A stretch of 58,345 bases of DNA, the filler included, from Sphacelaria rigidula (Eukaryota), in NCBI GenBank assembly GCA_964200075.2. It is 3 parts of 3 records of this genome, joined end to end, with 100 filler letters (N's around TTAATTAATTAA, not from the genome) between each part and the next. Parts side by side here need not be neighbours in the genome. Positions count along the whole stretch, not along the records: positions 38,972 to 58,345 come from CAXNAA020000678.1; 2 more parts are not named here. One strand, 5' to 3'. The notes under the pieces are model-generated. The model saw nothing but the letters and a program-made list of their open reading frames with translations. It was not told where the DNA came from and ran no database searches. Below are positions 10,347 through 55,693 of this stretch, piece after piece. Each line of letters starts with the position of its first letter. Positions within the stretch are counted from its first letter, which is position 1. Position numbers and translations under genes: made by a program.

Positions 10347-10395
<49 letters not shown>

Positions 10396-18746: not shown

Positions 18747-18925
18747 CCCCCCCCCCCCATGCCCCGTCTCTGTCTCGAAAGGGATTCGTGGTCAATGATC
18801 ACACGTCTAAGGCAAGCAACAAATGAGTACGCCCCCCCCCCATGCTCCGTCTCGAAAGGAGTGTGTGGTAAATGGTTAAACGGCTAAAGCAAGCAACAAA
18901 TGAGTACACCCCTCCTCGCCCCCCC
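18747..18925 (+). repeat. Two head-to-tail family A micro-elements separated by C-runs
   Basis: Two ~70-80-bp copies each ending ATGAGTAC(G/A)CCC. Confidence 0.85.
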
Positions 18926-19388: not shown

Positions 19389-19488
19389 NNNNNNNNNNNN
19401 NNNNNNNNNNNNNNNNNNNNNNNNNNNNNNNNTTAATTAATTAANNNNNNNNNNNNNNNNNNNNNNNNNNNNNNNNNNNNNNNNNNNN
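19389..19488. other. Artificial contig linker (N44-TTAATTAATTAA-N44)
   Basis: Exactly 100 bp; the 12-mer puts stops in all six frames; identical to 38872-38971. Confidence 0.98.
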
Positions 19489-20348: not shown

Positions 20349-20480
20349 CTGGCCTCGTGGATCGAAGTGTACCTCAGTCCAACGACCAAACCGAGAAGAG
20401 TTATTATTGCGCAGGGTCTTCGCGTTTCCGAAGGACTCCAGCACGGGGTTAGCGTGAAGGATACGCTGCTCTACAGCGTT
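20349..20480 (-). CDS. Myosin exon 6: switch I
   Basis: [25 protein letters not shown]. Confidence 0.95.
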
Positions 20481-26400: not shown

Positions 26401-29400
26401 AACCATGTGCTACCCCCACCCCCCCTCCACACACACACGCGCGCTCGCGCGCGCGCGTATATCTCCTGGATCGGCATAATTTTCGCGTCAACACTGACGA
26501 ATCACACTCGGCTATCCATCCTTCTACGAGTGCTCGAAAAACTAGGAATAGTTAACCAGCAAGACACTGCTGCTTCATCATATGCCAACAAGATGTTTGG
26601 AGGCAGTCAGTCTTTATCAAGGTATCACCAGCAGTGTGTTCCCTCCTCGTCGACTATTGCGTTTATTGCGGTAGACAAAATATTCCACACGGTACGCAGT
26701 GAACTCTTCGACAACTTAATCAGTTGTCCAGGGTGTGGTCCTTCCATGTGTTCGTTGTCTGGAGGGTAGGCCAAGACGGTAATCTTCCAACGAGCCAGCC
26801 GCAGGTGTCGACTCCGAGAACCGACGCAGCCACGAGACGGTAGTGAAAACAGGTGAATAAGACGACTTGGTCTGGCAAACAAACTCACCCAAGCCCACGG
26901 ACCACTGTTGGACTCCATCTCCTCCGGCGACTTGAGGCAGTCGGGCTTTTCCCACGTGACCGTCTCGCTCGACGGCTCGAAGTAGTATGGCACGTTATCG
27001 GCCGTCCGCTTCTCGACCCACTTGGTGGATTGCGATAGGGCTGCAAGCGCAGCATCTGACGTGACGCAAAAAAAAAAGCCGATACAAAAAAGTGGGGGGA
27101 GGGAGGTGGGGTTACATGGTCTGTACGGTGTAAAACATGTATACCGAGAAAGAACACCCGAACAACAAGAAGTTGAACAAGTTTGAAAATGTCACAAGGC
27201 ATGCTCAGAGATTCACCTCAAGATCACCGCATAATGACCGATGGAAACAAATACATCCCGGCGCGGAGGAGGTGCACTAGCTACTTCAACTGAGAATATG
27301 GTCCCTCCATTTGAATCCGTGTTGTATGTCAATACGCTACCCCCATCGTTTGTCGTGTTGACGTTGGTGCGATGTATGCGTAAGTGACAGCAATCCCTCG
27401 CGTACGAGCTGGGCCAGCTTAAAAGCTGCTAACTTTCTCACACCATAGCTTCCCCAGTTTCCCGAATGAACCCGATGTAAGCATATCAGTGTGAAGTGTA
27501 GACCAACCTGGTGACACACGGCACCGCCGCTGAATGAAAAAAAAAGAAAAAAAGTGTACTGTATAATGTATGTATGTATGACCTTAACGACGGACGAAAA
27601 AAAAAACTGTCGGGATTCGAACTCATGACCTCCATAATTGGAGTCTCTCATCACTTGATTTATAGGGGTGCAGCAGCGTCACGGAAAATGTTGAACGCAC
27701 GGCCCAATTCGACGAGTCTTTAGGTGAAATTTGAGGAAGACCTTCTGCACCCAAGGAACTGATACTTCAGGTGTTATGCTGCAGATTGTCTCCCTTTTCC
27801 TTGACTTATGGCATTATCTTGTTTATGATGAAATTTAAAATGCCCATAACTTCCTTTTTTTTCATTTGCTGCTCACGTGATCTTCTGCATTTTGGTCGTA
27901 GAAAACTGCTGTCCAAATTTCAGCGTTCAGCTCCTGATATCGCGCCGTGCGTTGCCTGAGCGAGATTCACACCTACTCTTGGCTGGCCCAACTTGTAGTG
28001 TATCAAGGGCCCAGGAGTCATCATGACAGAGTCGCTTCCAAAAGAAGTCATTCTCTAGTGATTTCAGATGCACCAATACGAAGGCACCTTGACTTCATTT
28101 TCCTTGTACGGCTGCTCCTGTTTTCAATATCCAAAGCTGCCGTCGGTTCAAAAATCGCACGAATGTCATCGATCACAATGGTGGATTGTGCGGGGCACCC
28201 AGACCTTGAAGAAAATTCGTGCCATTTCGAGTACAACACCACCAGAGTCTACTCAGCGACTGCCCTTACACCACTGGTAGAAGCCTTAGGTCCTCCAAAA
28301 GCGGTGTACCCCCGAGGATAAAGTATCATTCTATAGGTATACTCCTAGATAGGCCCACGTACTCCACTAAGAGGAAGGCGAAAACCCCGCGAGGGAAACC
28401 CCGGATACGGTACTCTTTGATTCTTCCTCGACAGCCGTCTAGTCAACTGTCGAGAAGACGGGTACAGCAATGGATGCATACGTCATCGAATCCAATAAAA
28501 ATACGTCTACCGACACGTCCATGACTTACACCGATGAAAAATTTAGTGGGAACTCATCCCGTGTGTTGTGCGGAATCCGCCGCAGTTCGCTTAGTTTTTA
28601 CCACACATGATGCATCTCACGACCCGTGCGCCAACTGTAACGTGCAGTTCGAGAATTTGTGGTTACATAGTGCTTTCACCAAGTGCGCCTTGTAACGTCC
28701 TAGTATGAAAATGTGATCACCGATCGTATCCTCTTCAGGTCAAGAGAGCTCAAAAAGAACGACCATGAGAGAGCTAGGTTTGATTTCATGAACGTCTCAA
28801 CATTCATGCATGGAAACCCCTGCGCGCGGTAGTCGACGTATCCCCGAATTGCTTGAAGGTACTGAATGGTACCATCTCATGACCATTGACACGGAACGGT
28901 AAGTGCACCGATCCTGCATCATTATTTAATGGTCTTGATTTCACAGGAGTGAAGTCAATGCCAGATCTGCACTTGGCATCTCCGAACGTTCGCCGCGTGA
29001 GGCGTGCGACACTTGCTGTTACTGGGACTCTACTCGATTCCGAATATAAAAAAAATAAAACATGGAAAATAAAGAGAATGAAAAAACATACGAAATTTGG
29101 GCCGGCTTCTTCTCCGCCATACGTTCTTCGAGTTGACGCTCTCATCGAAAGTGCCGCAATGCCTGTTCTTGAAACACCGCTCCGAAGAGAGTAATACCAA
29201 AATATGTCATGTTATTTAATTGTTTTCGAAGAGCCTCTATCGAGAACAGGTTCAGATGCTATTAGAGGATTCCCGTGGGTGACTGTGTTAAGTCCATCCT
29301 GTGGGTCCACGTGGCATTCATCGCGCACCAAAAGATTTCGATACGATGACCGTCTTATCCCTCCTCACCACCTGCTCCCTCGCCCGTGCTAGTGGGAAAA

Positions 29401-32400
29401 CCACACAAGACGAACTATGCGAAGTGATGGCATGGCGGTGAAAAAGTCATCATTGATGTAGAGAGGATAGGAAGAACGTTTTTAAAGAGCTGCGTGTATT
29501 CAAGGTGAAGGAGAAGGGAGCGACCAGCCATCAGCGATCTCACATCCGATGGATCACATCACTCTGCAAGCTCTTGAGGAACACGTCGTTCAAGGTAGAG
29601 TACGTAGGTGACGCACTGCAACGATACAGCACTTTCTCCTCACGTCAGATGGGCGGAGCAATTGCAACAGCCGACTGAATCTGGATGCAAACAGCTTCCC
29701 GAGCAGACGAACGCCTTCCCCCCATCCGTCCCTCCTGCATTCACTGTGGCCTACTCCTCGTCGACAGTGCTGAGCTGTTCTGAAGACCTCTCTCATCTTT
29801 ACGAACACTGCATTGCAGCGCAACGAGTGCTTGCAAGTGATCTTGATTGAAGTCCTCTGAAAGCACCGGGATACAGTACACCTTGGTTTCTCGTGCGGTC
29901 GGAGCTGACACTCCGCCCCAACCCCAAGAATACCACCTTGTCGGCCCGTTGATTTCACCACCGCGAAGATCGGTTTACTAAGGTTGGGATTAGGGTGGAG
30001 GTTACCGTAGACGTTGCGATATACGGGTGACGAGCAAGTATCGCGAAGAACATCAGCGCTAGGTGTGCGGTTATGGCTGAGGATGGGGTCAGGACTAGAG
30101 CTAGGGTTGGGGGAAGGGCTTGAGGTATGGTCCTGGTTTGCGTAACCCTCAAACGGGCGAGAACGACGGGGTGTAACGAACAGAAGTGCTGGCCAAAATT
30201 CTCCATAAACGTTTTTTTCACGCATCGAAGAGCTCACGAACTTTCTGGAATAAATGTTGAAAGAGGGCTCTCAGATCCATTGGTCCAAAAACATAAAATG
30301 CGTGACCGCGGGGTCAGAGAAGCAAAAGCGCAACCCGTGCGCTACTTCGCGCCTCCTTTGCGCACAGCGCTTTAGGGAGCAAGAACGTGGGAACAGGGTC
30401 CACATGAGCTACCTCATGATCCGGATCAGTACACTGGTAGAAGTAATATTCAAGCGCATGAGCTGCCCGACGTCAAGATTTTTTTTTCGAAATTATGCTA
30501 TTAGTTGGGATCCTCCTGGCACAAATAGTGTACGACCATTCTTGGTCTACAAAACGCTACCGGTGCCATAACGATGTCCCTTCTGATCCGAGGCGTCGAC
30601 AAATGTGCACTTCTGCAAGGGACTGTCGCAGGACTTCGAAATACCCGCGCTTGGCGGTTGCCTCTGGGTGTTGTAAGCTCCATGCTGTAGCCCGGTATCG
30701 GGGTACGTTGTGCACCACCCCAGGTTATGAGTTCTACAGTCCCGAAAATGCATCACTCAGACTCGGTTGTCATGTAAACGGTAAGCCACGTGACACGTAG
30801 GAGAGAGGAGAAAAAAGAGCTCCCGCCATGCTGGTGGCGGAAGACGTGTCCAGAAACAGAGGTCCGCACGTGCGAACGAGAAAAAATGCCGCAGTGAATA
30901 CTGGAAAACCTCGAAAAAACATCCGCGCAGGCAGTCGCATCTGCGGAACCGTTGCGCTAGGGGTACAGTGTGGGGTACCGCTGAGCGCTCAAGATTAGAC
31001 GCATCGTAAGAATTGCCTGTTGTACACTGTAGGCAATGGGCGGGCGTGGGTTTGCTCGCAGCAATAGCTCCGTCTCCACCAACATCTTCGCCCACCTGCT
31101 GTCCAAATACTCATGGGCACATACAGTCAGTAGTCTGCACTAGCGTCGTAGAATTCAAACAATATACTCAATTCACGAACATGCATTTTACTCAAGACAA
31201 AACTTCCGCAAGTCACGTGAAAGCAGATGCGGTTGTCCTCGGGGTGTACTGGATGCGACTGGACTGTGCATTGGTACAACAGTGCAATTCGAGCGTTTAC
31301 GCGTGGTTTCGAAGACCTCGCGCAGGGCAGATCTTTCGCCGCCTTAAGTTGTGAAGCTGCATTTATGCTGCCGCCCGCGAATGATTTTGTTGCGGGAAAA
31401 AAACTGTCCTACACGGGGTATGGGGAATGGCCCGTCCACCCCCTGGATGAAAAAAGTGATGACCGGGGAGAAAACGCGCTCTCGCACGCTACTTCAGTAT
31501 CATCCTAGGAGAGTAACTCTGCCTGCGAAGCCTGCCTAGAGCAATACTTCTTGAAGTGATGCCATTATAAGAAAACAGAGGTAGAATCCATTCACTCCGC
31601 CACAGCGTCTGCACTCAGGCCCTGCACAAGTTGACGGCATGGCGCGGTACCCGTATCTCACGCATGGCGATTGAATTCTCCTGCTCGTAGTTTGGATTTT
31701 TTCATCTTGTGGGATTCGACAGCGTTTGAGGGCTCAATACTGACTGTAAGGATCGGCACAGCGACTATTGGAGCCTTTGCACCACCTGACTGCAAAGAGA
31801 CCATTATAGTCCAACTTCCCAATTCGCTACTACTTGTAGGCATCGAGGATTAGAAACCGACCACATGGAGACTTACCGACCACATGGAGACTTGGACGAC
31901 AGTAGTAGTCGATCTGGAAACGAGAAAACACCGATATGTTCTTTGTTCTGTACACAAGCTCTCGGCATGTGAATTAGATCAACGCATTGAGAGCAAGAAA
32001 AATAGAGAGAACGAGAAAGAGAGAAAGAGAGAGAGATAGAGAGGGAGAGAGGGAGAGAGAGGGAGGTTGCCGCTTGCTGAAAAAAACAGCACCAACACCA
32101 GCCATTTGACTCCCTTGTGCAACTTGCAAAAGCAGTCAAGGCAGACGCCAGCACACTGTTTAGTCACCGCACACAGAATACACAACAGTGCTGTACTAAC
32201 CGTGAGGGCGTACACAAGGGATCTAAGATCGACCACCTGAATATCCGCCCCTCTGCCCATGAAACCAGCCATCTCATGCAATTTGTACGCACCACACCAA
32301 AAAACTCACCAGACATGGACTGCACAACGGGCGCGGAAGCCTGCGCAGCGGCATATCCTCCACTACTCTTCCCCCCCCCATTCCAGCCGCCGCCCCCTCC

Positions 32401-32652
32401 ACCTCCAGGCTTCGGCGGCAGTGGTGGCAGCGATTTCGCGGAAATCCCCGCGGCTGGGCTCGCAGCTGCTTTCACCTGGGAGTGCAGGGCAGGGACGCCA
32501 GAGAGGGGCTCCCACCCTGGTTGACCATCGCGCCATACTAGCGTTCCATCGCTAATGGTAGAGCGTGACAGAAGGCTGCCTAGCTCTGGTACAGTGCACG
32601 GTCCTTGCTGCGAGTTTGATGCGTCGTCCACGTAGTACCATGTGTCCCCCAT
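20349..32652 (-). CDS. Myosin heavy chain, 5' part: GYF_2 domain, Pro/Gly linker, WW domain, N-terminal SH3-like region, start of motor domain. Exons: 32652-32310, 27055-26889, 25535-25344, 23024-22791, 22149-22060, 20480-20349. Remainder lies beyond the contig end.
   Basis: Six GT-AG exons splice in frame from ATG 32652. Motor motifs: [29 protein letters not shown]-loop GESGAGKT, switch [20 protein letters not shown]. Confidence 0.95.
21390..21550 (+). repeat. Family A copy followed directly by a partial family B copy
   Basis: A (21399-21466), then TTTGTAGGGGCGCGAGGTCAATGGTCTTATGACAACGGCATGCATGATCGTGAGTAC-(C)n. Confidence 0.85.
22060..22149 (-). CDS. Myosin exon 5: P-loop
   Basis: [30 protein letters not shown]. 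Confidence 0.95.
22791..23024 (-). CDS. Myosin exon 4: motor domain
   Basis: [15 protein letters not shown]...SINPFK...[12 protein letters not shown]. Confidence 0.95.
23300..23380 (-). mobile_element. tRNA-derived SINE-like head (degenerate)
   Basis: Minus strand GCCCCTGTGAACTGAATT (A-box-like) ... GGGTTCGAAATCCC (B-box-like); related to 27597-27672. Confidence 0.5.
24387..24452. repeat. Dispersed repeat, inverted homolog of 30413-30472
   Basis: CTCATGAT(T/C)CGGATCAGTAC.CT.GTA(A)GAAGTAATAT shared in opposite orientations. Confidence 0.7.
24715..24738 (+). repeat. Interstitial (TTAGGG)4 telomere-like tract
   Basis: TTAGGG TTAGGG TTAGCG TTAGGG. Confidence 0.7.
25344..25535 (-). CDS. Myosin exon 3: N-terminal SH3-like region and start of motor
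   Basis: [13 protein letters not shown]...[12 protein letters not shown]. Confidence 0.9.
25730..25795 (-). repeat. Family B partial copy, reverse orientation
   Basis: Reverse complement reads CGCGAGATCAGTGGTCGCATGACTACGGCATGCAATATCATGAGAACACCTCC. Confidence 0.7.
26889..27055 (-). CDS. Myosin exon 2: WW domain
   Basis: [27 protein letters not shown]; phase 1 start matches exon 1. Confidence 0.9.
27597..27672 (-). mobile_element. tRNA-derived SINE-like head (degenerate)
   Basis: Minus strand CCCCTATAAATCAAGTGA ... GAGTTCGAATCCCG followed by an oligo-T run. Confidence 0.5.
32003..32062 (+). repeat. (GA)n-rich microsatellite in myosin intron 1
   Basis: Imperfect GA repeat. Confidence 0.85.
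32310..32652 (-). CDS. Myosin exon 1: GYF_2-type domain plus PPLPPKP/Gly linker
   Basis: [22 protein letters not shown]....I...[18 protein letters not shown]; donor G|gtgagt. Confidence 0.85.
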
Positions 32653-33806
32653 TATTCGGTGCTGTGCGAGCGGTGCTGGTGTGTATGTTCTGTGAGGGTA
32701 AATAGGAACACTTGTGAACCCGGTGCTCCGCTGCGAATGTTTGATAGGCAGCAGTTATGGGCTGCTGTATCGATTGCTGCTACTGCTGTCCACGCAGACT
32801 TCTGGGACAATGCAGTTGTTTCTTCCTTCCCCCTGTCCCGAGAGTCCGCAAAACCTCTCACTAGTCTGCTTACGTTCCTCGAGGACAGACACAGCGGTAC
32901 ATTGCGCCGACCTACCCTGCTCGGATGATTGTGGCTAATTACATGACCTATCAAAACGCGTAGCACAGAACTACTAGCAGATTATCAGAATATATATTCA
33001 CAATGTTGCTATAGTCATGATGATTCTCGTGGGTAGGGCTTGAACAATAAAAAAAGAATACCGCGCCCGTTCTATGATTATTTATTTATTTTACTGGTAT
33101 TATTATTAGGTTTTATACAATACAATCGAGATTTGAGATTGATAACTGAAAGCGGATAGTACTGCAGTCAATTTATATGGTGCATAACGATGAAACACTA
33201 GAAGTTTAAATTGCAGCAAGGGACCTCTCACCACAGTTACAGCACAGGCACAACCGAGGCGCTTTCCTACCCACGGGCTAGGGTACTGGTCACAAGTTCT
33301 GTGACCAGGCGAGGGAGATCAACCCTAGGGGAGGGGCAAAGTATGTTTCTGCCCGGCCTGCAAGACGGCGGTGATTCATCAAGAGAAGGTGATGAAAAAA
33401 GTAGGCGCTTTTCTCCGCCCTGAGAAGTATCGGAATTCAAATTTCGGCTCCGATTCTTGTTCACAAAACTCACTGACTATAACACTACATCATTATTGAC
33501 TGTTGTACCCCTCTTGTGCACGTCCCGATTCCAATACAGTATACATCATACATCCAATCTTTATTGTGTATTGTTGTTGTAGTTGCGAAAACATATTTTT
33601 TTCCCGAACCCCTTCCGCGTGCACACCGACACAAACGCCGACACAAAACAACGCAAACACGGTGCGAGAGTGGTAAGTGATAGTACTGACTGTAGGTCAT
33701 ACGTCAAACTGCGCTTGCGCGTACATCAGCACACATATAAGATACGCATGTTCAGTGACAGGCGTATTTTTGGTCTTTTGTATGGCCTACCCTTTAACCC
33801 CTGCAG

Positions 33807-33927
33807 GCACGGATGGATTGAGAAGCTCGACGATGGTCACTGCTGAGAGTATGGTGGGACTAGAATTGGCCCAGAAACCCGATCTTCCGGGTCAGTCCAG
33901 CGAGGACTTGGATTTGGCAGCTGATGG
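33807..33927 (+). CDS. Possible exon of a gene divergent from the myosin (product unknown)
   Basis: Strong cctgcag| acceptor and |gtgagt donor; open frame TDGLRSSTMVTAESMVGLELAQKPDLPGQSSEDLDLAAD; no recognisable domain. Confidence 0.3.
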
Positions 33928-36351
33928 GTGAGTAGAATGAAAAGGCGTGATCTTTCGTGAGAGCTTGGTCATCAGAGGACGCTACACCACCTTACACTGC
34001 CTGATACCACATTGCCACTCCGACTTGTTGGGCTTGATGGGCATGATACAATTATCCCAAATTCTCACGTTTCCGTTACATCTGTACGTGATAACGTTTT
34101 TTTTTGTGTCATGTTTGATGTGTCAAACTACAGACAGAACTCTCCTCTGCAGTGTAGTATCACCCGTGACTTGAACACTCCCCACCCTCGAAGGGTCCCG
34201 ATCTCGCCCGTACTGTCGATACAGCCCTCCCGAATGGGACTCACGCTTATACCGGGCCCAAAAAATAATACACCTTTTGACTGCTCGGCAGGTGGTCAAG
34301 AATGTTCGTGGGCATAGCTGCTGATTGTCCTTAGGACCACTCTTGTTTGTTTTCATCATTTTGACACCCGCATTCAAGCCAAGCAATTGTCGTGACCCTG
34401 ATGTCAACCAACACATAAATGCTGTCTCGGCACTGGAGTCATTCATGCGTTGTGCTGGCTCTACTGTCTGTATAGTCACGGCAAATATATTACTCTTGTT
34501 CAAGGAGCGACTCCAGCACAACGTACCCGAGATGAAACTTGTCCTGGCCTCGATGCATCACGATTTATCGGCACAACGCGCGCAATTTGTGGGTGGGTGC
34601 TTGTGTGGATATGCCGTTCATTGCTGCGCGTGATCCATGACGCACGAATGACCACAAACCAACAGGATTCGACTGCATCAACCGCTCACGCAATGTAGAG
34701 TACGAACTACTGCGCGCACTTGTTTACGCTCTGAAGGCCGTTTCATTTGTGATTTTGTTCCATTTGGGCATCCCCCCCCCCCCCCTCCTCCCCTCCCCTC
34801 CCCACCCCTCTTGAAATGGTTCCATATCCCACGGAAGGCAGCGGGCGGCTTGCGAGCATTCTTGTTTGCTTGTGACCCGTGCTGGATGTACAATTCCTTG
34901 ATCATCGCAGCCTTTACAAGCGGGACCGAAGACTGGGAGCACCTGCCTCAGAAATTTCCGCTTTTTTGTACTTCTCGATCTCTCCTTCGTAGTACGCATC
35001 TGTTTAATTGGTTTCGGGCGAAATTACGACCTTGGGGTGCATATGCTGACCGGTCCAGTCCAGAACTAACTACACAGGACAGTATACAGTACTGTACTCA
35101 ACTTTCTATAGCCTCTAGTGAATAAATGGAGGGGGGTTGCGTTAGTGCATCAACGGAAGTGAAGGACTTGATGTGTACCGTTTGTCTCCGGTCGTGAAAG
35201 GATATCCCAGTCACGAAGCGCGCATCATTTTTTATTCCGATCATGCCAATGCGGACTCTTTCCTGATTTTTTATTTGCTCTCGCAGTGAAGATCCCCTCT
35301 TGTGCTCATGGTCTTTTTCGGCGGCCGTCTGTAACGTGGACCCCGAAACTTGCGTGTTTCGGAGTATCTACCGATTGTCTATACTCTACTGGAGCGCTGC
35401 CGCTGCTGTACATGCAGTACCTTTACGAAGTCACGCTTTGTCGCCGCCCGAGTGTACTGCTGCTGTACTGACTCTATGTTTCTTGGATTGAGTTAGAATA
35501 CTGGCTGTCCTACTCGCGGGTAATGCACAGGGACCGCACGGACAGATAGCTATGCGGGCGCATACCACGTAACTTCCTTCTGGTCTCCGCATGGAATCAC
35601 TAGAAGTGGAGCAAAGAAATATAAAGTGTTGTCAGATGATTTTTCGTGCTTGTTGCACATCATTATTAATCCTTTTGGAACCACACTCCCCTCCCATCCC
35701 CGGATCATATGCCTCATTATTCACCAGCGATCATTGTTGCAGATGAAAGAAAAACGACAGAAAGTTTATAAAATCATATGAGATGCGCGTACAAGCTGAA
35801 CCAGCCAAGAAAAGCACAGTCACACCCTGGCTTACTATCGAGACGGGGGGAAAAAAACGAAAAACGAAGCAAATGTCTATAAAAGCGCGTTGGTTGGCCG
35901 CAGGGTGAGGCGGTCAATGCGAATGCTGCTTTCAGGCGCTTGATTCGTTTCCTGCTTCTTTTCTTGTCTCGACAAGGCGGGGCCTCACGCCATGTCTTCT
36001 CACATCGTGTCTTGTGTCTTGGATTGAGAGAGTGCGGCGGAAAAGAAAATTATGTACCGGATATGTCCACGTCATGGATGTTCTCAGATTGTTTCAAGTT
36101 ACTTAAGTTTATGATTATTCGCTCGCGACCGGCGGGGTGAAAAACAGAAAAGCTGAGGGCGTATCTTAGCACTTAAGCTGTGTCTTGTCAAATTGTTTTC
36201 GACTCGAAAACCTACGATGGAATCGAAGTTGCTCTTACCTGATACATCCTCGGCATCCATCTTCACAACCATTTGAGAAAATAAGAGCATGAGCGAATCG
36301 TAAACGAGCGAATTCGATTCCACCGCACGTTTTCGACACGAGGACAATTTG

Positions 36352-36458
36352 TTAACCCTTAGACCGCGAGGTTAGTCTTCTGTTGAATAGGCATCAATTT
36401 CAAGTGAAAAAAACATATGCATGATCCAGAAAGACTAATATCGCGGTCCAAGTGTTGA
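36352..36458. mobile_element. piggyBac-like MITE (~108 bp), copy 2, inverted relative to copy 1
   Basis: TTAACCCTTAGACCGCGAGGTTAGTCTT ... AAGACTAATATCGCGGTCCAAGTGTTGA; interior aligns to the reverse complement of 2652-2760. Confidence 0.75.
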
Positions 36459-36482
36459 GACACGCCCTTAGCACATTTAATT

Positions 36483-36622
36483 TCGATCGAAATCGTGCGG
36501 TGGAAACAGAAATCCTGATCTGATAGGTCACGATTTCAACCATTCTCAAAATTTTCGACGATGGTTGAAATTTCGATTTTATCAGGTCGAGATTTTTGTG
36601 TTCCACCGCATATTTTCGATCG
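36483..36622. repeat. ~140-bp spacerless palindrome
   Basis: TCGATCGAAA..TGCGGTGGAA...TTTCAACCAT and its reverse complement around a centre at ~36550. Confidence 0.85.
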
Positions 36623-36873
36623 ACAACTGCGGGTACGAATCTCATGACAGAATTTCAGGTTCCAACTAGAAATATTCAATGTTGCGGCGATATTGTTGGC
36701 GAAATCCGTGCTTTCTTGGCCAGTCTAGATCGTACAAAGCAAGCACCCCCGGCGTGGGGGGGGGGGCAGTTTCGGCCAATATCAACACGCTCCAGGCGAG
36801 GTGTTCTCAATTGGATCCGTTAGAAATGTGGTCAGGCGTACAGGCTGGGCCGCCCAAAACGCGGACGGGGATG

Positions 36874-37184
36874 TGAACACGTGATTCAGCAGCTCAATTT
36901 TGGGTCATTCCCTATGAAATTTTGACACGATGTACAGGACGTGTGTAGGAAGACTCCATCATCTCTCCCCTATTTATTAGTTTGTTTGTTTGTTTTTTTG
37001 GGGGGGGGGTTGTTCACGGTTTTATTCCGAAATTGACTGTTCTGAAATGTTTGGTCGCCGGTAACTCACGGAGAAAAAATAATGAATTCAGGAGGCAGAC
37101 GATGGAGTATTCGCACATCAATTATGTACATCGTGTCAAAATTTCATAGGAAACGACAAAATTGGACTGCTAAATCGCGTGTTC
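36874..37184. mobile_element. MITE-like element with ~95-bp terminal inverted repeats
   Basis: GAACACG.GATT.AGCAG...CCTATGAAATTTTGACACGATGTACA...ACTCCATC at the left, reverse complement at the right. Confidence 0.75.
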
Positions 37185-37232
37185 GTGTCGAAGACTGAAT
37201 CCTATGTGGAGATGTGCCAGCCACGGAAAAAT

Positions 37233-37520
37233 GAAACGCTTTTATGCTGTTCAATTTCAAGTATTCTTCCACGAAATTTTGACACGATGCGTATGAGGTG
37301 TATTGTTAAGTCCCTAGTGTCCCCCCTTGACATTTTTTTTCAAAGAGTGGTGGGCAGTTTTGTACCAGGAAAAACTGTTGCGAAATTTAAATCACCAGTG
37401 ACTCACGAGGAAAATAAAAACAGAGGGGGAAACGGTAGGGGCTTCACATACACCTCATGTATTTTGTGTCAAAATTTCATAGAAAACGACTTCAAATTGA
37501 GCAGTGGAATCGCGTTTTTC
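37233..37520. mobile_element. Second, related MITE-like element with ~90-bp TIRs
   Basis: GAAATTTTGACAC..ATGAGGTGTAT...CCCC at the left, reverse complement at the right; shares the GAAATTTTGACAC core with 36874-37184. Confidence 0.7.
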
Positions 37521-38871
37521 TGTCGAGAACCGGTTCACTTGCTTTTAGAATACAATAACCTCAGCCTGAACTTTGACGTTCTCTACAAGCGCGACGCCCC
37601 GGCGCGCTGGAGGTCTCGTCTCCGTGCCATCTCAGACACTGCGCGCCTACAGTACAACATTCATTGTTGTACAATCACAACCAGCGCAGCACTATCATTT
37701 TGCGGCCGCGGCACAACCGATTGTAACCGTAAATGCGATTTCAGCCGTTTTTTCCCCCTTATTCCGCCGCACATGCGACCCTCAACTCTCTACACTTCGC
37801 AGCTGACTACAGTTTGTTATTTCGTTTGATGGGAACTTGTCAGATCGCAGTGCTACGTGAAGTCAAAGACGCGCGTTGATTTGCAGATTACCACGATGTG
37901 TCATAGTAGCACAACTGGCGATAGATCGTCCGTTAGAACCGGCTGAAGGACAGGCCGCTTCTCAGGCGACCCAGCCTGTACAAGACTTAATTACGTCATA
38001 CACCATGGAATGCAAAATTCAAAAGAATTTCAAAATTGGCCCACGTCGATGCACTGATTGTACTACACCACAACCTCCCACGGTCATGGTAACAACGGCC
38101 ATGTACTACCAGGCAAGCTCTCTGCGGTCCGGGCTTGCGAAGCCCTCCGAGCACGAACCCTCTGTTGTAAACGCCTCGACCTTTTGTCACACGCAAACAA
38201 CTGTCGTGGTCGGGAAGGGCTGCTGTACTGCTGTCTTTCTCCACCCCCAGTACCATCATCACCGGCTACCTTGATCTCAACAACCGCCGATTGTCGGTTT
38301 GCACCGGATATGTTTCCGTCGTTCACCATATAAATGCTGCTCGTGTTATCAGCCATCATGTGGGTGTGCGCACATACCTTTGTCGGTGGTTGTGTAGTTT
38401 ATTTCACGTCCGAGCAGAAAGGAAGTAGACGTAAACATTACAAAAATGACATCGAACGAATTGTTCAAGAGCAGGTCGAGTAGAGTATAATCAGTTGCGG
38501 GGTATTTTGAGAGACGTACTTGAGGTGCTCAAATTAGCGTAGAGTGTTGGGAGTCGTTTCCAAAAAATAACGGGAAAGCGATCCCTCAAACCCTACTCCC
38601 CCATTTGTGCACTTTGAGTACGAGGAAATACCCCGCAATTGAGTATACTCTACTCGACCTGCCCTTGGAATTGTTGTCCTTTTACTTGAATGGCAAACGA
38701 AAGGTGACGCCCTCCCCCCTCCCTCCCCAAGTTGATCACATGACTACGACAGGCAACATATGTATATTTTCCCCCCCTCCCCCCTCGCCTCCTGTGTCCG
38801 ACACCATCTCGTTGATCTCGTGCCGCTGTATGTACTACACATATAGCCCAACATCGGGGGGTCTGAGCAGG

Positions 38872-38971
38872 NNNNNNNNNNNNNNNNNNNNNNNNNNNNN
38901 NNNNNNNNNNNNNNNTTAATTAATTAANNNNNNNNNNNNNNNNNNNNNNNNNNNNNNNNNNNNNNNNNNNN
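38872..38971. other. Artificial contig linker (N44-TTAATTAATTAA-N44)
   Basis: Same structure as 19389-19488. Confidence 0.98.
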
Positions 38972-40120
38972 GTGCCCTTTGTACCGAGCTTGCCAGCGGA
39001 CAGTCCACAAGTTTCGGCCGAGCATGCCCCGATGCTGACAACATCACCTCAACTGGACGCAGTTGCAGTTTTCCAAGAAGTCTTGGAAGTTCCCAGCCAT
39101 TTGTCACGGCACGAGAGGAAGTCTCGTCGTCATGCCCCCCAGGAAGCGCGAGCATTGACACGCCCCCGTCTCGTTAGCGGAAAGTTCCAACCTCATTCTC
39201 CCCCAAAAGCGGCGACTTTGAGCTCGATGACATTGCCAGGCATCCAAGAGGAATCCAAATCGGACCTTTCAGATGATATCGCATCCTCCACCGATGACCC
39301 CCGTAGCACTTCGCAGCAATCTCTATTCAATGATGACCCTTGTTCTTCCAAGCCAGTCATCTACGAGATTGATCAAAATCCTGATTCACGCTGCCCTTCA
39401 CGATCGGTTCAGACCCCCGAGCTGTCTACCGATACCTTCGAACCCCCCGCGGACCACCCGCCATCCGTTTTCACGGCCAGTCCAGACACTTTCTACCATA
39501 GCCCCCCCCCAAAACAGGCCAAAACGTGCATCAAAGAATTGCCCAAATACGGCGTCAGAGCTGGTTTAGGAGTGCACGAAACACTGCAGTCTTCAAGATG
39601 TGGGCGTGATAGCTGGTTTAGGACTGCAAGGCGCGCCCTACACCAGCGATGCTGGCAAACATGACAATAAGCGCGACACTTTCCATCTACTCGGTGCGCG
39701 CGGCTTATCCTACTTTGGCGCTTTTTATGCTGTCCGAAGGCTGGCGTTTCGTCATGCCGGCGATGTCCGAGCTGGAGGCAGTCAGTTCCCCCTCCTGGAC
39801 AGAAGCATGTTCGAGATTCTGAGGCACTTGCACGATACAACGCCTCGTGTTTGGTTTCAGCCTGCATGAAGCGCCTCATAGAGACTCACTCGGCAACACC
39901 GAACCCGGGCCCCGACGGAAACTCCCGGCTGCTAGGTATCCTCGGCTTCCTACCTTCCGATTCACGTGTAGCTTTTGCACTCACCAACCAATCAGCCTTT
40001 TCTTTTCGGGGGGCTATCGTAGGAAGTTCTCTCTGGGACGACGGCATTATCCTTCATCCACGTGAATTAGTTTATATCAACGACTACAGAAGTTGCAGCG
40101 GAGATTCATTATATTCGTAA
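38972..40120 (+). pseudogene. Decayed ORF of unknown function (Pro/Ser-rich N-part, frameshifted globular-looking C-part)
   Basis: Overlapping + strand frames 38972-39664, 39600-39869 and 39851-40120 join by apparent frameshifts; no family recognised. Confidence 0.4.
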
Positions 40121-46899: not shown

Positions 46900-48860
46900 G
46901 TTGAGGGGTTTCGTGAAGCAGCTGTCCGTCCATGATACGCATGAGATTGCTTCCAAGGTTTGCTGTTGTTTGCGTCGAATGTTGGCAGAGTTCAAACGTA
47001 TAGAGCTGGTTTCATAAACCGGGTGTTACTCTATGATGCCCGGCGATTCAGTTATGTCTGCGGGTGTGCCGTTGGTCAGGCCGCACGATATATCGTGAGC
47101 GTCTCTGCGTGAGTGTGTATGCACCCCCGTTCGTGGCCATCGTGGTCCATTCCGTAAGATTTCATAGACGGGTTGATTTTCCACGACGCGCAAGACGTCA
47201 CTATATTTTCGTGCTACGTATATGGTACGCAGTCGGGCGAGATGTGGTCAGTGTTTGGGCGACTGCACGCATCCTTGTTAATGATCGCTGTTACGTGTGT
47301 ACCGGTTGCTGCTATGAACAACCGGTTGTTCTTTAGTGATGTGCAAAGCCAGTGTCATTGACCTCGTTTCATGTTTATGTACATTCGCGGGATACAGGTA
47401 GCGTGCGCGCGAGTGAATTGTTGCCTCGCTCGCTTTCTGGCAAAGTGCACAAGTAATAATGGATGCCATAAATCCGCTGTTACTCCGTGAAGCCCTGCCT
47501 CGAGCGTTCGCGTGGTTGCATGCATCCCGGCTCATGGCCTGCGTGATGTCTATTGTTTGGTTTCATAAGCCAGTGGATGGTCTGCGACGTGCGGGACATG
47601 GATGGTTTATATATATATTCTGGTCACTTTGTACTCTGACCGCAGAAATGTGGTCAGCGTTCGCGTTACCAGTTTTACTCCGGGTACAGGTCGCGAATAT
47701 GTGCATTGGTCTGTTTCATGAATTGGCGCTCATGCGACGGTGCGCTGGATATGGCTCTTTGTTTTCCCATGGGTGTGAGGTGTTAATGAATTCAGTAAAT
47801 GTCGGCGGCGGGCGCGCGATATTGTTTGCGTGGGTTTATGGTAGACTGCAGACGTATAGAGCTGGTTTCATAAACCGATGGTTATTCCGTGATGCCCAGC
47901 AATTCGGTTGCGTCTCTGGGTGCGCTGTACGTTACGCCGCGATATGTCGTGCGCGTCTCTCCGTGAGAGTTTATGCACCCTTGTTCAGGTCCATCGTGGT
48001 CCATCGTGGGTGCTTTCATACACCGGTTGATGTCTTACTACGCGCAAGATGTTTTATTATTCTTGCGACGCATTTGTCCGTTGATGAGAGAGACGTGGTC
48101 AGGTTTTGGGTTCCAGCATGCATCCTGGATACTGCCCGCTAGTATGAGTGCTGGTTGTTTGCGTGGGTTTGTGGATACTGTGCGCTAGCAATGTTTCCCA
48201 CGTGCAGCGTAAACGAATCCAGCAAATGTCCGCAGCGGGCGCGCGATAGCTCCTGCGTGGAGTTGTGGTAAAGTGCCAACCTATATTACTGGTTTCGTGA
48301 ACCACTCGTGATTCTGTCATTGCCGGGGATAATGTATCCGGGTGCCCTATAGGTTGGGCTGTGATATATCGTGATCGTCTGCGTGAGTGTTTGCGTCCCC
48401 GTTCATGTCCGTCCTGACGTGTACAGTAATGTTTCACACACCAGTTTATATTCAACGACGCATATGATGCCCCTCTTATCTCGCGAGGTATGTTGTACGT
48501 GGACCAGAGGGATGCGGGCAGCGTCGGTGCCACACCATGCATCCTGGATACTGGCCGCTAAGACGTGAACTTCTTGCTATCGTGAATCATCGGTTGTTAT
48601 TCGATTACGTGCAAGAGAAGTGTACATGTCTTACCGAGATTGATTTTAAATACCTCCGTGGGATATCGGTAGCGTGCGCGCGAGTGTTTCTGTGTCGGTT
48701 GGTGGCAGTCAACGTGTTAGAATCTGGTTTCGTGAACCAGCTGTTGCTGTGTCGGTTAGTGCCAGTCAAAGTGTTTGAAGCTGGTTCCATAAACCAGCTG
48801 TTTCTGTGCCGATTAGTGCCAATCAAGGTGTTTGAAGCTGGTTTCATAAACCAGCTGTTG
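46900..48860. repeat. Degenerate ~145-bp tandem array with ~430-bp higher-order period, each unit carrying the palindromic core TGGTTT-CAT-AAACCA
   Basis: Cores near 46905, 47006, 47157, 47302, 47460, 47557, 47711, 47862, 48011, 48151, 48289, 48429, 48724, 48781, 48838. Blocks starting 47006, 47862 and 48289 align over hundreds of bp. Confidence 0.85.
48686..48856 (+). repeat. 3 x 57-bp tandem repeat
   Basis: GTTKCTGTGYCGRTTRGTGSCARTCAA.GTGTTWGAAKCTGGTTYCRTRAACCAGCT x3. Confidence 0.9.
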
Positions 48861-49247
48861 CTTTGGGAAACCTGGCAAGTCTTTCGCGTGTATAATTCTA
48901 TTCTGGAGAAAGGCGCGAGTTGTCGCGAGCGCGCGCTCGATAGTATGCGACCCGGTTCATGGCAGTCTTTCCGTATTACGTGGGTTTCGCCTGTCCTCTT
49001 GAAGGGAGTAAAGGCCCCAAATCACATTCGTCAAATTGTCGTATGTGTTCCATCGTTGTAATGGCGGTGCGGGTAAACCACTGTCGCGGGATCCGACTGT
49101 GTGTTCGACTTGTTCCGAAATTGATATGGTGACGATGCCACTGGTTGCTGCTCAAGTGTGCTGCAGTGGCATCGGATTTACAATATTTGGATATTTTCGA
49201 TGTGGTGAACATCCGGGTATGTTCCCGGTGCATATCTCCAACGCCGA

Positions 49248-50300: not shown

Positions 50301-53300
50301 CATCATCAGAGTGTGGCCAACTAATCCTGACCAATTCACGTTATCTGAACATGACCCTGACCTTGTTGGTGCTAAGGTGTCCGTTGATCCTGCTACCTTC
50401 ACTATCCGCGTAGCATTACACTGCGGCCCTTACGCCACCGCGCGCGCCAAGTGCGTCTCGTTGTTAGACAGCGGTAGTCCACAGACATTCATCAACGAAC
50501 CCATGTGGAATCATATGAAGCAGACTAGCGCTGCTTCCGATGCCTGCGAAATCATCACCAACCTCGCGTTTGGGGCGATTTTCGGCGACTCCAAAACACC
50601 CTTGCCGACACGAAACTCTGTTCGTCTTAGTGTACAAATTTCCACAATGATACACGTTCTACTAGTCTCGCAGTCTGGGCTTACATCGTCCCTGACAGCA
50701 CCATGCATCATGCTCTCCTCCATGGCAGAGATAGTTGCATGCGGTTCGACCAACGCACATACCGCACCCTTCCACCATTATCGCCTAAGTCGGCACCTCG
50801 TGAAGAACTCCAACTAGAACACTTTGGTACCCTCAATGGTGTCTTAGCCTACAAACAAAATGAGCAGGCTACCGGAGTGGCTTACCACCTTCGGTACAAT
50901 GGCACTTCTGGTGTCACCCTTTCCGATGAACCTCAACTCTTAGAAGTTTCGCTTGTTCGCCGCAACGGCATGCCTGCCCTCACCGGCCACTACCTTGCGG
51001 AATTGCTGCCTAAAGTTGGTGCGCCCGCTGGCACTGAGCATTTTGTCTCGGACGGCGAACAACTCCTGCTTCTCACAGGCCACGCTAATCTGGAACCTGG
51101 CGATGTCTTGGGCATCGCCGCGGCTCCTCTTATGCACATTCCTCTGGATACCTGTGTAGCCAATCTTCCGGCGCCTGATTCCACACCGCCGAGTGATGGT
51201 TTCGTTCACTGCGTTGATGAGCCATACTTTTATCTATCCCCCTCACCCCCGACTCGGATTTCTGCGGTAAAATCCGACCGACCCCCTGCTGAACCTCCTG
51301 ATGAAGTGCTTCAACGCTTATCAATCGAGTCTCGGGAACATGTCTTGCAAATGTGGCACCAACTTCCACCCCATTTGCGTGATATTCATTTTGACCTACA
51401 TGATCCGGGCTGGGAGTCCCCCGTCATCCAAGAGCTACAAGATGTTCTCCTGGAATATCAGGACAGATTTTCACGATCCAAGACGGACCTCGGGCATTGT
51501 AAAACATTGCCATTCGAGATCACTCTGCAACCTGGCGTTTCGCCAATCTCATCTCGACCATATCGAACGAATCCCCTCCTCACAAAAAAAGTCAATGCTA
51601 TATTGGATGCATACTTAGGAGCTGGTCTGATTCAACACTCGTCTTCGCCATGGGCCTCACCCCTCGTGGTCGTCCCCAAAAAGATGGCAACATACGCATC
51701 ACCGTAAACTACAAAGGGCTGAACCGGCTGAACTGCGTCACTGTCGGGGGAAAACTCCCCATACCTCGCATCGACGAAGTCTTCGACTCTCTTGGCGAGA
51801 AAAAAATATTCAGCACTTTCGATCTGGCATCTGGATTTTTCCAAAATGCAATTCACCCCGATACAGTCCCCTTGGTAACAACGTTCTGTACATCTTCAGG
51901 GCTTTTTGAATGGCTTCGTATGCCACAAGGCGCTGCCACCGCACCGGGCTGCTTTCAACGCCTCATGCAAGGCGTTACGGACGGTCTCGGGCATGTTATC
52001 ATGTATCTAGACGACGCTATCGCTTTTGATGCCTCCCCCAAGGCACACGTTCGCACTCTACGGGAAGTTCTCTCCCGCTTGCGTATACACGACTTGAAAT
52101 GATCTCCATCCAAAGCTCGACTCGGAGCCACTGAATTGGATTTTTTGGGACACTCTATCTCTCCTGCTGGATTGCACCCAGACACGAACAAGGTCAAGGC
52201 TATGACTGATATGCCCATGCCCACCAATATTTCGCAGCTTCGCTCGCTGGTGGGTGGACTTTCATATTATCGCAAATTTTTGCCCAACTTGTCCAAGCGG
52301 ATCCGGCCTATCACAGATTTACTGAAGAAAAACGTCCCGTTTGTCTTCACTGAAGAAATGGAAGCCACCGTCCGTGAACTGCTCAAACACTGACCGAAAA
52401 ACCGGTTCTTTATTTTCTGGATTGGGATGCGGTACAAGACGGCTCACGTCTTTTCCAACTATACACCGATGCTAGCACAGTTGAGTTCGGCGCCGTTTTG
52501 AATCAGCCTCAACTGGATGGCTCTGTCCGACCTATTTTGTACATGAGCCGCGCAACCCTCCCAAATGAGGCAAACTGGAGTCCACTCGAACTAGAAGGCG
52601 GAGTCATAACTTGGGCTATTTAACGGCTTTGACAGTACTTGTTCCACGTGCCTTTCCACATCTATACAGATCACGGACCTCTTGAAAAATTCGCCAATGT
52701 TGGAGAACATACCCCGTGCAACGGTGGCTGGAGTTCTTGACTACTTACCAGTACACTGTTAAACACCGTCCGGGGAAATCCAACGGCAATACTGACCTTC
52801 TTTCGCGATTGCTTCTGCCCCCTACAGCGGTAGATTTCAGTCCCGCTTGCCGCTTGACAGAACCTGACAAACCAAGCGTCTACCCCATTCGGCGTTTTTC
52901 TACGCACTTGACCTGCAATGCCCTGAAACAGGTCCGCACATGGGGGGCTCCCGCCCTCTGCCCCCTAATACAGTTTTGGATGGCTTAGCGCCAACAGCTG
53001 CTGATTTTGCCGACTTCCGCACTTTCGGCCTTCGCGCGAACATCTCGGCGCCGCCACCACCAACTGTCCACCTCATCTCCGACAACACGCGCTCTCGGTC
53101 GGCAGCTCGTGCAAATTCTTCGCGTGCTGTGATGCCACCACCGCCACCGGCCACTTCTAGCAATGCGTCGCCGCCGCCGCCTCGTGCCCCCACGGGCCGT
53201 ACCACGCCTATAAAAACCGGCCGCGTGCCCACTATTGTACCAACACCGCCCACGCCCCTTGTGCGCCCAACGCGCCGATCGCGTTCACCAGTTCGCGCTA

Positions 53301-55693
53301 CCCCCACGCCGCCTTCTGGGAGTCTCCCAGCACCTGCGCCACTGACTCGCGATACACATGCGTCAGATCCGCTCCCGGATAAAGATGTTGACGTCGGCAC
53401 CCCTGCTTCTTCACCTGTGCTACCCCCTCCTGAGCCACCATGTTTGGTTGGTTCTCCGGCTGAAGGACAACTTCGGGAATTTCTCGCTAGCTATTTTCAC
53501 CGCAATTGGGCTCGCGACCAACAACAAGAACCGCTCCGTCGTGCGACAATGCGGTGCTTACGGCTCAACTGCCCCACCCCTTTCCCGGCTGAGATCCTGA
53601 CACCCGTGGGCACTCTACCCGCCCCCACCGCCTCTGAAGTGCTTGAGCTGGCACGCAAAGGTACTATCGTCGCGACTGACGACGACGTCCATTTGCTTGT
53701 TCTCCGAATCAACTCCCATTTGGGCACGGCTGCCGCAGTGACAACTGCCGCTCGGGCACGTATGCGTCATGACGCCCCTATCCGCATCTATGTCCCTATC
53801 ATGATGCGTCCGTGGGTCATGAAGGGCTGTCACTCTGATTTGTCCTGCCACTTAGACGTCACGCGTACGTTAGCGCTCCTGGAACGCTTTTATTGGTGGA
53901 TTGCCATGGAAGCATCCACGCGTTTTTGGGTCCAACGATGTTTCAAATGTCAGGCTCGCAAAGCCTCTCGACAGACTGTACGGTGGCCGGTGATTTCCAT
54001 GGAGCTTCCTAACGCTCCTGGTCACTTCGTATCGTTTGACTACTTCGGCCCTTTACCCCCAACTGACCGTGGTAATACCTACATTCTACTTTTCACAGAC
54101 CGCTTCAGCCGTCACGCGGCTATATGCTGTTACTGCTAGCGATTTCACTGCTGCCAGTACAGCGGACATTCTCGTCCATGACTACATTAAGCACTATGGC
54201 TGCCCGAAACGGCTTCTCTCCGACAAAGGTCAACAATTTTTCTCCGAACTCTCGGATGATATGTACAAGCTCCTCGGCATTCGCAAAATTGCCACGAGCG
54301 CGTACCACCCTAACGGTAACGGTAGGCTGAACGTGTGAACCACGCGCTGGCTCAAATGTTATCCATGGTCGTAAACGACCGACAAAATGACTGGGACCTT
54401 CATCTTTCGCATGCCATGCTGTCTTACAACAATTCGGTAAACGCGGCTACGGGCCTCTCGCCCAACGAGCTGCATCTTGGACGCTACCCTCGTCTGCCCA
54501 TCACCGTTTTCGAAAGACATACCTTCGATGGTCACCAAGGTCTGCAACAGGATCAGATGTCCTACCACGACCTCGCCAGGGCTCGTCAGCGCAAGGCTTT
54601 CACTTTGGTGCGCGAACAACACGCTATCAACGCCTCACGCCTTGAAGTATCCAATACCGCCCTCTACAACTTGATGTACAAACGCCCTACTTAGAAGATC
54701 GGCGATTGGGTCTGGATCTACAACAGTTTGTCCACCATCCGTCCAGGCGCTGACCGTACTGCCCAGGCAACAGTCTTGAAGACCAAACTGTCCCTCAACT
54801 GGACGGGCCCGTTCAAGATTCTCATAGTCGGACCCTCGCCGACGTCTCCTGACGGCAAGCCTGTTGGCGACAAACTCCTTTACGTCGATTTACGTCGTGA
54901 CCTCCACGGGCACGACGCTAAATCTCGCGTCCCTGTGCATCTTTGCAAGCCTTGCACGAACCCGCATGATACTACGGACATGCCTCAATACCTGCCTGCA
55001 GATCTCACTCAATACGCGCTCAACAGCTACTCAACAAAATCTCCACCGTACCACGTTACCACCGATGACGTGACTGAACAACCTCTCCGCTTGGTCGTGT
55101 CCCACATTTCCGGTCACCAGATCACTCGAGGCCTTGGCGGCAAAATTGTCGTCATGGGCAAGACACACTGGCAATGTCTTCGGCGTGCGTCTTGGGAACG
55201 CGAGTCCGACCTTCAACTGCACCGTCGTACTATCCTTCTCTATTGGACACAATCCCCACAGCAACAGCTCGCTGACAACAAGGGATATCGCAACATGAGA
55301 CGCGGCGCCGCAGCCCGCGAACTCCACCGCAACAAAGGACTACGTTTTGTAGCCGATGGTTACGAACTCGTACCCACTAAACAATGGGACGAAAAGATTC
55401 GCGCACAACAACAACCGCTCCCTAAAGGTGCCTACTTGTGGAATAAGGGCAGCGATTACCTCTGGTGGCTAGGTCAGATCCACTCCGTCGATGCCCCCGC
55501 GGCCGACACGTACATCGTGCGTTTCCTCGACGATCCTGGGCACGCTCAGCTCAAGCTCCGCCCCGATTCTTACACGACCAGCCCCTCCGCACCCCGCGGC
55601 TCCTGGTGCCTACAACGCCTCAAGTCACACGGCCTACGCCGAGGTCTTCAGCGCAATATCGATCGTACACACGACATCAATGCACCATCTTGA
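50266..55693 (+). pseudogene. pol: Gypsy pol polyprotein pseudogene (protease, RT, RNase H, integrase, chromodomain, PWWP-like tail)
   Basis: Consecutive ORF fragments 50266-50817, 50703-51707, 51650-52102, 52136-52393, 52940-54139, 54335-54694, 54728-55693, broken by frameshifts and in-frame stops (e.g. 52100, 52621, 54137, 54692). Confidence 0.92.

Follow-up and report, generated by a model that had tools for sequence, protein, structure and literature searches.

A brown-algal Ty3/Gypsy integrase tail with a chromodomain and a second conserved, probably Tudor-like domain

Reader domains on Gypsy integrases

Among natural examples of transposons that choose their landing sites, the clearest are integrases with a fused reader domain. 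Most fusions between transposable elements (TEs) and readers involve Chromo and PHD domains, according to the available text of 10.1101/2021.11.30.470311. Here, we analyze the C-terminal tail of a Ty3/Gypsy integrase encoded in a 58,345-nucleotide stretch of Sphacelaria rigidula DNA (assembly GCA_964200075.2; hereafter the window), in the part taken from CAXNAA020000678.1. Behind the integrase module that ends in WTGPF, this tail carries a chromodomain (block 1) and a second conserved domain (block 2). We lean toward the reading that the integrase of this family ends in a bipartite chromatin-tethering tail, with block 2 adopting a Tudor-like fold.

The closest described systems come from Ectocarpus. 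In the available text of PMC12477816, to which all mentions of that source refer, reader domains are reported on all four Gypsy lineages, with chromodomains on three and a Tudor domain on the fourth, Gypsy-10_Ec32. The Gypsy-12_Ec32 lineage combines an N-terminal NADAR domain with a "putative C-terminal chromodomain". The same text describes Ectocarpus as devoid of 5-methylcytosine (5mC), H3K27me3, and H3K9me1/2/3, with H3K79me2 and H4K20me3 marking repeats and silent genes. The original prediction had named 5mC and H3K27me3 as the marks absent from brown algae; both entries stand, and for Ectocarpus the list is widened by H3K9me1/2/3 (PMC12477816). H3K9me1 or H3K9me3 has been reported from some other brown algae (PMC13076208). 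Brown algae thus reportedly lack 5mC and H3K27me3, and Ectocarpus also H3K9 methylation, yet all four Gypsy lineages there reportedly bear readers.

Gypsy-12_Ec32 is the closest published counterpart of the system described here. Full-length relatives of the window copy share its layout, and one of them is an Ectocarpus protein. The chromodomain of this lineage is already known, because PMC12477816 reports it for the NADAR-bearing lineage. That text assigns one reader to each lineage and, as far as it is available, does not mention a second domain, an incomplete cage, an Arg-rich helix, or Cys/His motifs; these four features are what the present analysis adds to it. Gypsy-10_Ec32 supplies a precedent, from the same host group, for a Gypsy integrase fused to a Royal-family reader other than a chromodomain. 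It is called the first TE with a Tudor domain and has a homolog in Tribonema (PMC12477816). However, it represents a separate lineage for which the available text mentions no chromodomain, whereas the putative Tudor-like block of the window family would stand behind one. This comparison sets the Gypsy-10_Ec32 Tudor beside block 2 from its description, not from its sequence. No description of an integrase bearing a chromodomain together with either a Tudor or a PWWP domain turned up in the literature searched.

Two further systems frame the comparison. Chromoviruses place a chromodomain behind the GPY/F module of the integrase, as the window family does, but stop at the chromodomain, whereas the window family continues to block 2. 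The chromodomain of one such element, MAGGY, has been reported to make H3K9me heterochromatin the target of integration (Gao et al. 2008, known through the available text of citing works). The original prediction took chromoviruses as its point of comparison, which needs correction: according to PMC12477816, the chromodomain lineages of brown algae are neither chromoviruses nor related to them or to Chronos. The second system is the lentiviral integrase with LEDGF/p75, in which a Royal-family reader tethers the integrase to marked nucleosomes and biases insertion. The likeness is a functional analogy only. LEDGF/p75 is a host protein with a true PWWP domain, bound through its integrase-binding domain, whereas the reader of the window family would be encoded in cis.

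The window copy and its open tail

The window holds a dead, 5'-truncated, and frameshifted pol copy, of which the last 1 kb is still open. Against a full-length relative of 2075 amino acids (aa), P0185, tblastn aligned only residues 268-2062, in seven pieces across 50332-55663 that shift between frames 1, 2, and 3. The copy is judged dead because this match starts at residue 268 and switches among three frames, and because no long terminal repeat (LTR) pair was found in the window; two related metagenomic loci (L002 and L003) likewise showed none. Nor was a clear polypurine tract found after the stop codon, which leaves the element without a defined 3' border. Pfam recovered RVT_1, Integrase_H2C2, and rve on pieces of the window, each in another frame. 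Together with the full domain order seen in relatives, these domains place the remnant in the Ty3/Gypsy (Metaviridae) pol group, and the family profile matched the Ty3 integrase 7q5b (E=4.5e-24). The features under discussion are as follows.

50332..55663, + strand: Ty3/Gypsy pol remnant (protease, reverse transcriptase (RT), RNase H, integrase, tail), 5'-truncated, in several reading frames
54695..55693, + strand: open frame of 332 codons plus stop, covering the C-terminal region of the integrase and the entire tail
54701..54820, + strand: integrase C-terminal GPF module (GDWVWIYN...WTGPFKI), its motif kept in the 52 relatives used
54944..54955, + strand: CKPC (CxxC) motif before the chromodomain, a possible metal ligand pair
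55085..55252, + strand: block 1, chromodomain with incomplete aromatic cage (tail positions 17-72)
55277..55336, + strand: Arg-rich linker, putatively helical (Y-R-x-M-R-x-G-A-A-x-R-E-L-x-R), less variable than any other part of the tail
55418..55576, + strand: block 2, beta-rich, probably a Tudor-like SH3-fold barrel (tail positions 128-180)
55604..55621, + strand: W-C-x-x-x-H motif after block 2, with Leu at the His position in the window copy

The 332-codon frame (54695-55690, closed by the stop at 55691-55693) ranks third by length among the open frames of the window; at the local base composition, 332 open codons have a chance of ~1.7e-6. Translation of 55085-55690 on the plus strand reproduces, letter for letter, both peptides on which the original prediction was built, and WTGPF lies upstream in the same frame as the tail (54800-54814). 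Its coordinates were good to one codon: block 1 (VVSHIS...ESDL) occupies 55094-55213 instead of starting at 55091, and block 2 (LPKGAY...HAQL) occupies 55418-55552 instead of ending at 55550. On the GPF region, SH3_Tf2-1 gave a weak match in one relative, P0207.

A Pro/Ser/Thr/Ala-rich stretch of ~300 residues (52868-53800, +) separates RNase H from the integrase zinc finger in the remnant. It had no Pfam match, and relatives such as P0018 have a comparably long low-complexity spacer at the same site.

A conserved module of a NADAR-bearing lineage

The 202-aa tail matched 24 proteins with E values from 4e-17 to 4e-56 (coverage of at least 93% in 21 of them), and the 332-aa frame matched 961 cluster representatives at E<=1e-3. 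The species named among the members are Ectocarpus sp., Nemacystus decipiens, and Pylaiella littoralis. In the full-length relatives P0185 and P0188, the order is NADAR, RT, RNase H, integrase zinc finger, rve, and tail. The NADAR domain, of YbiA type and located at the Pol N-terminus, was matched at E=3.6e-49 in P0185, 1.7e-49 in P0188, and 1.9e-40 in P0023, which places the family in the NADAR-bearing brown-algal Gypsy lineage. NADAR is missing from the window copy because this copy begins at the equivalent of P0185 residue 268. The family is thus most likely the NADAR-bearing Ty3/Gypsy lineage of Gypsy-12_Ec32 type, an assignment made by published layout.

A search seeded with divergent members uncovered two further sublineages, for a total of 48 proteins. 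Tail identity to the window is 23-36% in sublineage 2 and 37% in sublineage 3. In an integrase-core tree of 19 family rows and eight metagenome outgroup rows, seven outgroups of soil origin fall apart from the family (100/100); the remaining one, L004, forms a long branch inside the family and its placement is unsure. The sublineages received supports of 98/93, 100/99, and 71/97, and the order among the three is not settled. A metagenome scan with P0011 kept 80 loci, of which only three (L001-L003) have the tail, intact in each case. The scan of viral contigs for the family returned nothing.

All three sublineages keep the same tail order, namely CxxC, block 1, Arg-rich stretch, block 2, and W-C-x-x-x-H. 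By these sequence comparisons, the NADAR-bearing Gypsy lineage of brown algae has conserved the tail as a module. The linker, block 2, and Cys/His motif of sublineage 1 are homologous to those of sublineage 2 (hhalign Prob 98.9%, E=1.9e-17). In Nei-Gojobori estimates among L001-L003, block 1 had proportions of nonsynonymous differences (pN) of 0.10-0.22 and block 2 had 0.21-0.25, against proportions of synonymous differences (pS) of 0.64-0.85 (0.64-0.73 in block 2), which are saturated. Purifying selection on both blocks is indicated, since pN lies far under saturated pS in each.

These data bear on the simplest objection, that block 2 is no domain at all and represents a chance linker motif or sequence running toward the LTR. 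The window copy alone gives this objection its footing: it had no Pfam match to chromo, PWWP, or Tudor models, and searches of its tail against Pfam and the PDB returned chance-level rows only (NTR, E 0.13; dioxygenase, E 0.92). Moreover, neither an LTR nor a polypurine tract was located that would show where pol ends. Yet block 2 is conserved in three sublineages at 23-37% tail identity to the window, the sublineage profiles align as given above, and pN is far below pS. Hundreds of copies in sequencing runs also keep the frame: at >=90% identity (90-99%), the 999-base tail was found in 513 contig pieces of run X1 and 698 of run X2, with no insertions or deletions listed. In our view, the pN/pS values, sublineage conservation, and hhalign alignment refute the objection, which we regard as hardly credible. 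Block 2 is very likely a folded domain under selection. The second block that the original prediction placed behind the chromodomain is thereby borne out as a separately conserved one in three sublineages.

The same run data establish the family as high-copy in the organism of the two runs examined, so that natural insertions could be compared with existing chromatin immunoprecipitation maps of H3K79me2, H4K20me3, and H3K36me3 (PMC7784034, PMC13076208). Two runs that may be RNA also include contigs over the tail; none of the 14 sources listed is an RNA source. At five tail positions that the family strongly conserves (38, 41, 136, 169, and 195), the window copy itself has another residue, and at four of these, other copies in the runs have the family residue. 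Such departures fit decay after insertion.

One protein stands apart from the transposon layout. In P0024 (Nemacystus decipiens g3980.t1), TIMP and WSC domains are joined to the linker and block 2. This is probably a chimeric gene model produced by an insertion beside a host gene or, less probably, a domesticated tail.

Block 1 is a chromodomain with an incomplete cage

A profile of 46 sequences from all three sublineages (A5) aligned with chain residues 26-85 of 2rso, the Swi6 chromodomain, at E=2.2e-4. Eleven of its 13 PDB matches are chromodomains, among them Oxpecker (0.018), MPP8 (0.02), CBX1, cpSRP43, and LHP1. Homology to solved chromodomains thus extends over the whole domain. The Pfam Chromo model was matched below threshold in 14/60, 11/26, and 17/36 members of three partly overlapping sets, over profile positions 2-51 of 53. 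The best E value among the 60 members was 2e-4, and the best score listed (19.5 bits, E=9.6e-4) does not reach the curated threshold of PF00385 (25.1 bits). Judged by profile homology, block 1 is a chromodomain.

The HP1/Swi6 chromodomain is its best significant match. Both share the E-V-E-K-I start, the Y-x-x-x-W-x-G box, (S/T)-W-E, and a C-terminal helix ending in Y-W. Unlike HP1/Swi6, block 1 has Leu at two of the cage Tyr sites. The classical (group I) cage consists of Y24/W45/Y48 (PMC3350952). Mapped through the Swi6 alignments, the Y24-equivalent column has Leu in 27 of 42 rows and an aromatic residue in one, the W45-equivalent column has Trp in 44/48, and the Y48-equivalent column has Leu in 39/47 and Phe or Tyr in three of the 47. 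The family therefore shows Leu/Trp/Leu in place of the three aromatics Tyr/Trp/Tyr. This composition fits a group II or shadow-type cage. Group II chromodomains are without Y24 and usually without Y48, a loss equal to the Leu/Trp/Leu pattern seen here, and had been known only from plants (PMC3350952).

The chromodomain-like block named in the original prediction is thus backed by profile homology to solved chromodomains, but its cage is not intact, as two of three aromatics are absent. With two cage aromatics gone, methyl-lysine reading by block 1 is doubtful, which weighs against a reader role for this half of the tail. HP1 reads H3K9 methyl marks, whereas the host of block 1 reportedly lacks them, and an incomplete cage fits a host reportedly without H3K9me1/2/3.

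Block 2 and its possible fold

Block 2 is defined by the conserved aromatics W135, Y/F136, W143, W144, Y159, F163, and Y179. It also shows G131, K137, L-G, R162, L-D-D-P-G-P, and L174, followed by G-S-W-C-L-Q-x-H. W143 is near-invariant across the sublineages (Trp in 49/53 rows), and W144 is Trp in 43/53. A crude propensity estimate gives five to six short beta segments and no helix. Two origins by duplication were ruled out with hhalign, one from block 1 (Prob 0.1%) and one from the integrase GPF/SH3 module (Prob 0.9%). A block-2 profile search among longer proteins returned 24 proteins, all of the same family and none cellular.

Of the named outside leads, all of them weak, most belong to the SH3-fold or Tudor group. 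Among 60 members scanned with Pfam, block 2 was matched by SH3_VIII-1_N in six (best E 0.0054), Agenet in four (best E 0.02), and Tudor_2 in one (E 0.14). A further scan of 36 members gave two Agenet matches (0.081 and 0.19), one SH3, and one DUF3104. In the PDB, sublineage-1 profiles matched three chains of the PHF19 Tudor domain (E 0.11-0.88), and with the sublineage-1 profile of block 2 alone these chains were the sole matches among 177,635 sequences. This PHF1/PHF19 (Polycomb-like) Tudor is the only solved domain matched by the sublineage-1 block-2 profiles. It aligns over strands 1-3, a region that takes in G-x-x-x...D-G-L-aromatic-aromatic-L-G-K-I and V-x-F. ESM Atlas neighbors of two fragments restricted to block 2 scored 0.80-0.89, where scores <0.9 count as leads only. 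KIF2A-like_1st, DUF4772, and DUF3104 are among those named, and Spin/Ssty, Agenet, PTM/DIR17 Tudor, PHF20L1 Tudor/MBT, and Tudor-knot appear at 0.80-0.83. Taken together, block 2 is probably a Tudor-like SH3-fold barrel.

A number of observations weigh against this assignment and against a reader function. Taken singly, none of the matches between block 2 and known families reaches significance. The PHF19 likeness, at E only 0.1-0.9, is lost once sublineages 2 and 3 enter the profile: the three-sublineage block-2 profile matched eight PDB chains, all unrelated (Y14 RRM, RyR3, and a designed protein). On block 2, Pfam gave no Royal-family match in any of 26 members from sublineages 2 and 3. The best named Atlas neighbor, KIF2A-like_1st, shares a family or clan with only one of the ten best named matches. 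At the putative pocket, W144 is replaced by Gln in sublineage 2, and F163 by Leu or Met in P0110-like members of that sublineage, with Phe kept, for example, in P0206. In the PHF19 alignment, only two of the four PHF19 cage positions are aromatic in the family. Since the branching order of the sublineages is not settled, gain of the W144/F163 pair cannot be told from its loss. The cage residues singled out in the original prediction (W..K..Y.WW, F) are kept at W143 and changed in sublineage 2 at W144 and, in some members, at F163, and the Royal-family membership it proposed holds as probable on sub-threshold leads, with no significant match. That block 2 reads methyl-lysine is possible but rather doubtful.

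The original prediction had named a PWWP/Tudor-like domain and matched it to the PWWP pattern. In its fuller form, this reading makes block 2 an H3K36me3 reader and a built-in counterpart of LEDGF/p75. The G-x-x-x-W-x-K...W-W...F pattern indeed resembles the first three PWWP strands, and P0153 matches Pfam PWWP (PF00855) at E=0.12, with 13.3 bits against a cut-off of 25.6, in a match confined to the first half of the model (positions 1-46 of 93). A deeper tail profile also matches 2m1h (E=0.47), a chain titled Transcription elongation factor S-II that we take to be a PWWP domain, which the text consulted did not confirm. The PHF19 Tudor is an H3K36me3 reader. Nonetheless, the PWWP model was matched by 1/60, 0/26, and 0/36 members, below the family cut-off in the single case, and the Agenet and SH3 models were matched more often. 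The PWWP motif reads P/S-W-W-P, with its last Pro at the start of strand 2; the family reads L-W-W-L-G without these prolines, and Leu fills the PWWP Pro site in 83% of rows. A very crude Chou-Fasman estimate on A5 does not indicate a helix after tail position 180. The specific PWWP claim is thus not supported: a PWWP fold for block 2 is improbable, and a PWWP that also reads H3K36me3 still more so.

A stronger competitor accepts block 2 as a selected domain and denies it a mark. Block 2 would then be an SH3-like or metal-stabilized binder of DNA, the nucleosome surface, a host protein, or integrase subunits, much like the C-terminal domains of retroviral integrases, and any chromatin targeting would rest on the chromodomain and basic helix. 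This explanation agrees with the fact that conservation and selection have been demonstrated for block 2 while a family link has not, and with the loss of the candidate cage residues W144 and F163 in sublineage 2, where G131, W143, L174, C191, and the Arg-rich helix are near-invariant by contrast. The conservation of CxxC and WCxxxH hints at a structural metal site, and integrase C-terminal domains are SH3-like DNA binders (available text of PMC9316232). On the other side, block 2 has no profile similarity to the GPF module of its own family. The recurrent weak links also lead to Tudor, Agenet, and Spindlin readers, not to classical SH3 or integrase domains. Furthermore, methyl-lysine cages typically show such a grouping of five or six conserved aromatics. 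We consider this explanation a genuine contender, albeit not the expected outcome. If block 2 is merely structural or DNA-binding, the finding amounts to a fuller description of a published lineage.

The Arg-rich linker and the Cys/His motifs

The stretch between the two blocks is better conserved than either candidate reader pocket. Positions A92, R94, and R98 are conserved at >=90%, and the same columns (R124, A128, and R130 of alignment A7) are near-invariant over the three sublineages. A helix is suggested for this linker, a call made from a crude propensity estimate only. This basic helix may contact the nucleosome or DNA.

The tail is bracketed by two Cys/His motifs. Of 55 relatives, 48 have CxxC within the 45 aa that precede the tail, and its region gave weak RecR_ZnF or Paired_CXXCH_1 matches in some relatives. 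Behind block 2, W190 is kept in 42/45 relatives, C191 in 43/46, and H195 in 36/43; the sublineage 2 version reads WCWHxH. CxxC and WCxxxH may share one metal ion.

A model for the integrase tail

In the bipartite tethering model toward which we lean, the GPF module would be followed by CxxC, the chromodomain, the Arg-rich helix, the beta-rich aromatic domain, and W-C-x-x-x-H. The chromodomain would retain its central cage Trp, with Leu at the other two cage positions. The two domains and the basic helix could together hold the intasome on nucleosomes and thereby bias insertion. Candidate marks are H4K20me3 and H3K79me2, found at repeats and silent genes, or H3K36me3, found over gene bodies. 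A cage-poor chromodomain beside a selected aromatic-rich domain offers a concrete pair for tests with brown-algal histone marks.

A more elaborate version can be formulated, in which the integrase carries a tandem Royal-family reader in cis. The chromodomain would have dropped its H3K9me cage, and the Tudor-like barrel would supply a new one. An Arg-rich, nucleosome-contacting helix would join the two, and a Cys/His metal site would clasp them. Such a tail would read H4K20me3 and/or H3K79me2 and steer insertions to silent, transposon-rich chromatin. We regard this scheme as speculative and unlikely in its entirety. If it holds, a transposon integrase would for the first time be seen to carry two different histone readers, which would also provide a handle on "heterochromatin" in a lineage without 5mC, H3K9me, and H3K27me3.

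Other features of the window

A short distance before the pol remnant there are diverged direct repeats (46966-48320, with spacings of ~427 and ~856 bp). A 57-bp tandem repeat of 3.1 copies occupies 48685-48862. Neither tRNA genes nor Rfam matches were found in the window. The N letters (88 in bases 1-20000 and 88 in 20000-40000) are likely assembly gaps. A second RT fragment at 9363-9896 (+; RVT_1 E=2.1e-8) comes from another retroelement. On the minus strand, frames encode a myosin head (22515-23129, E=7.5e-18), a WW domain (26625-27191, E=2.4e-4, below the Pfam cut-off), and a GYF domain (32164-32754, E=4.4e-13), which are probably exons of one or more minus-strand host genes.

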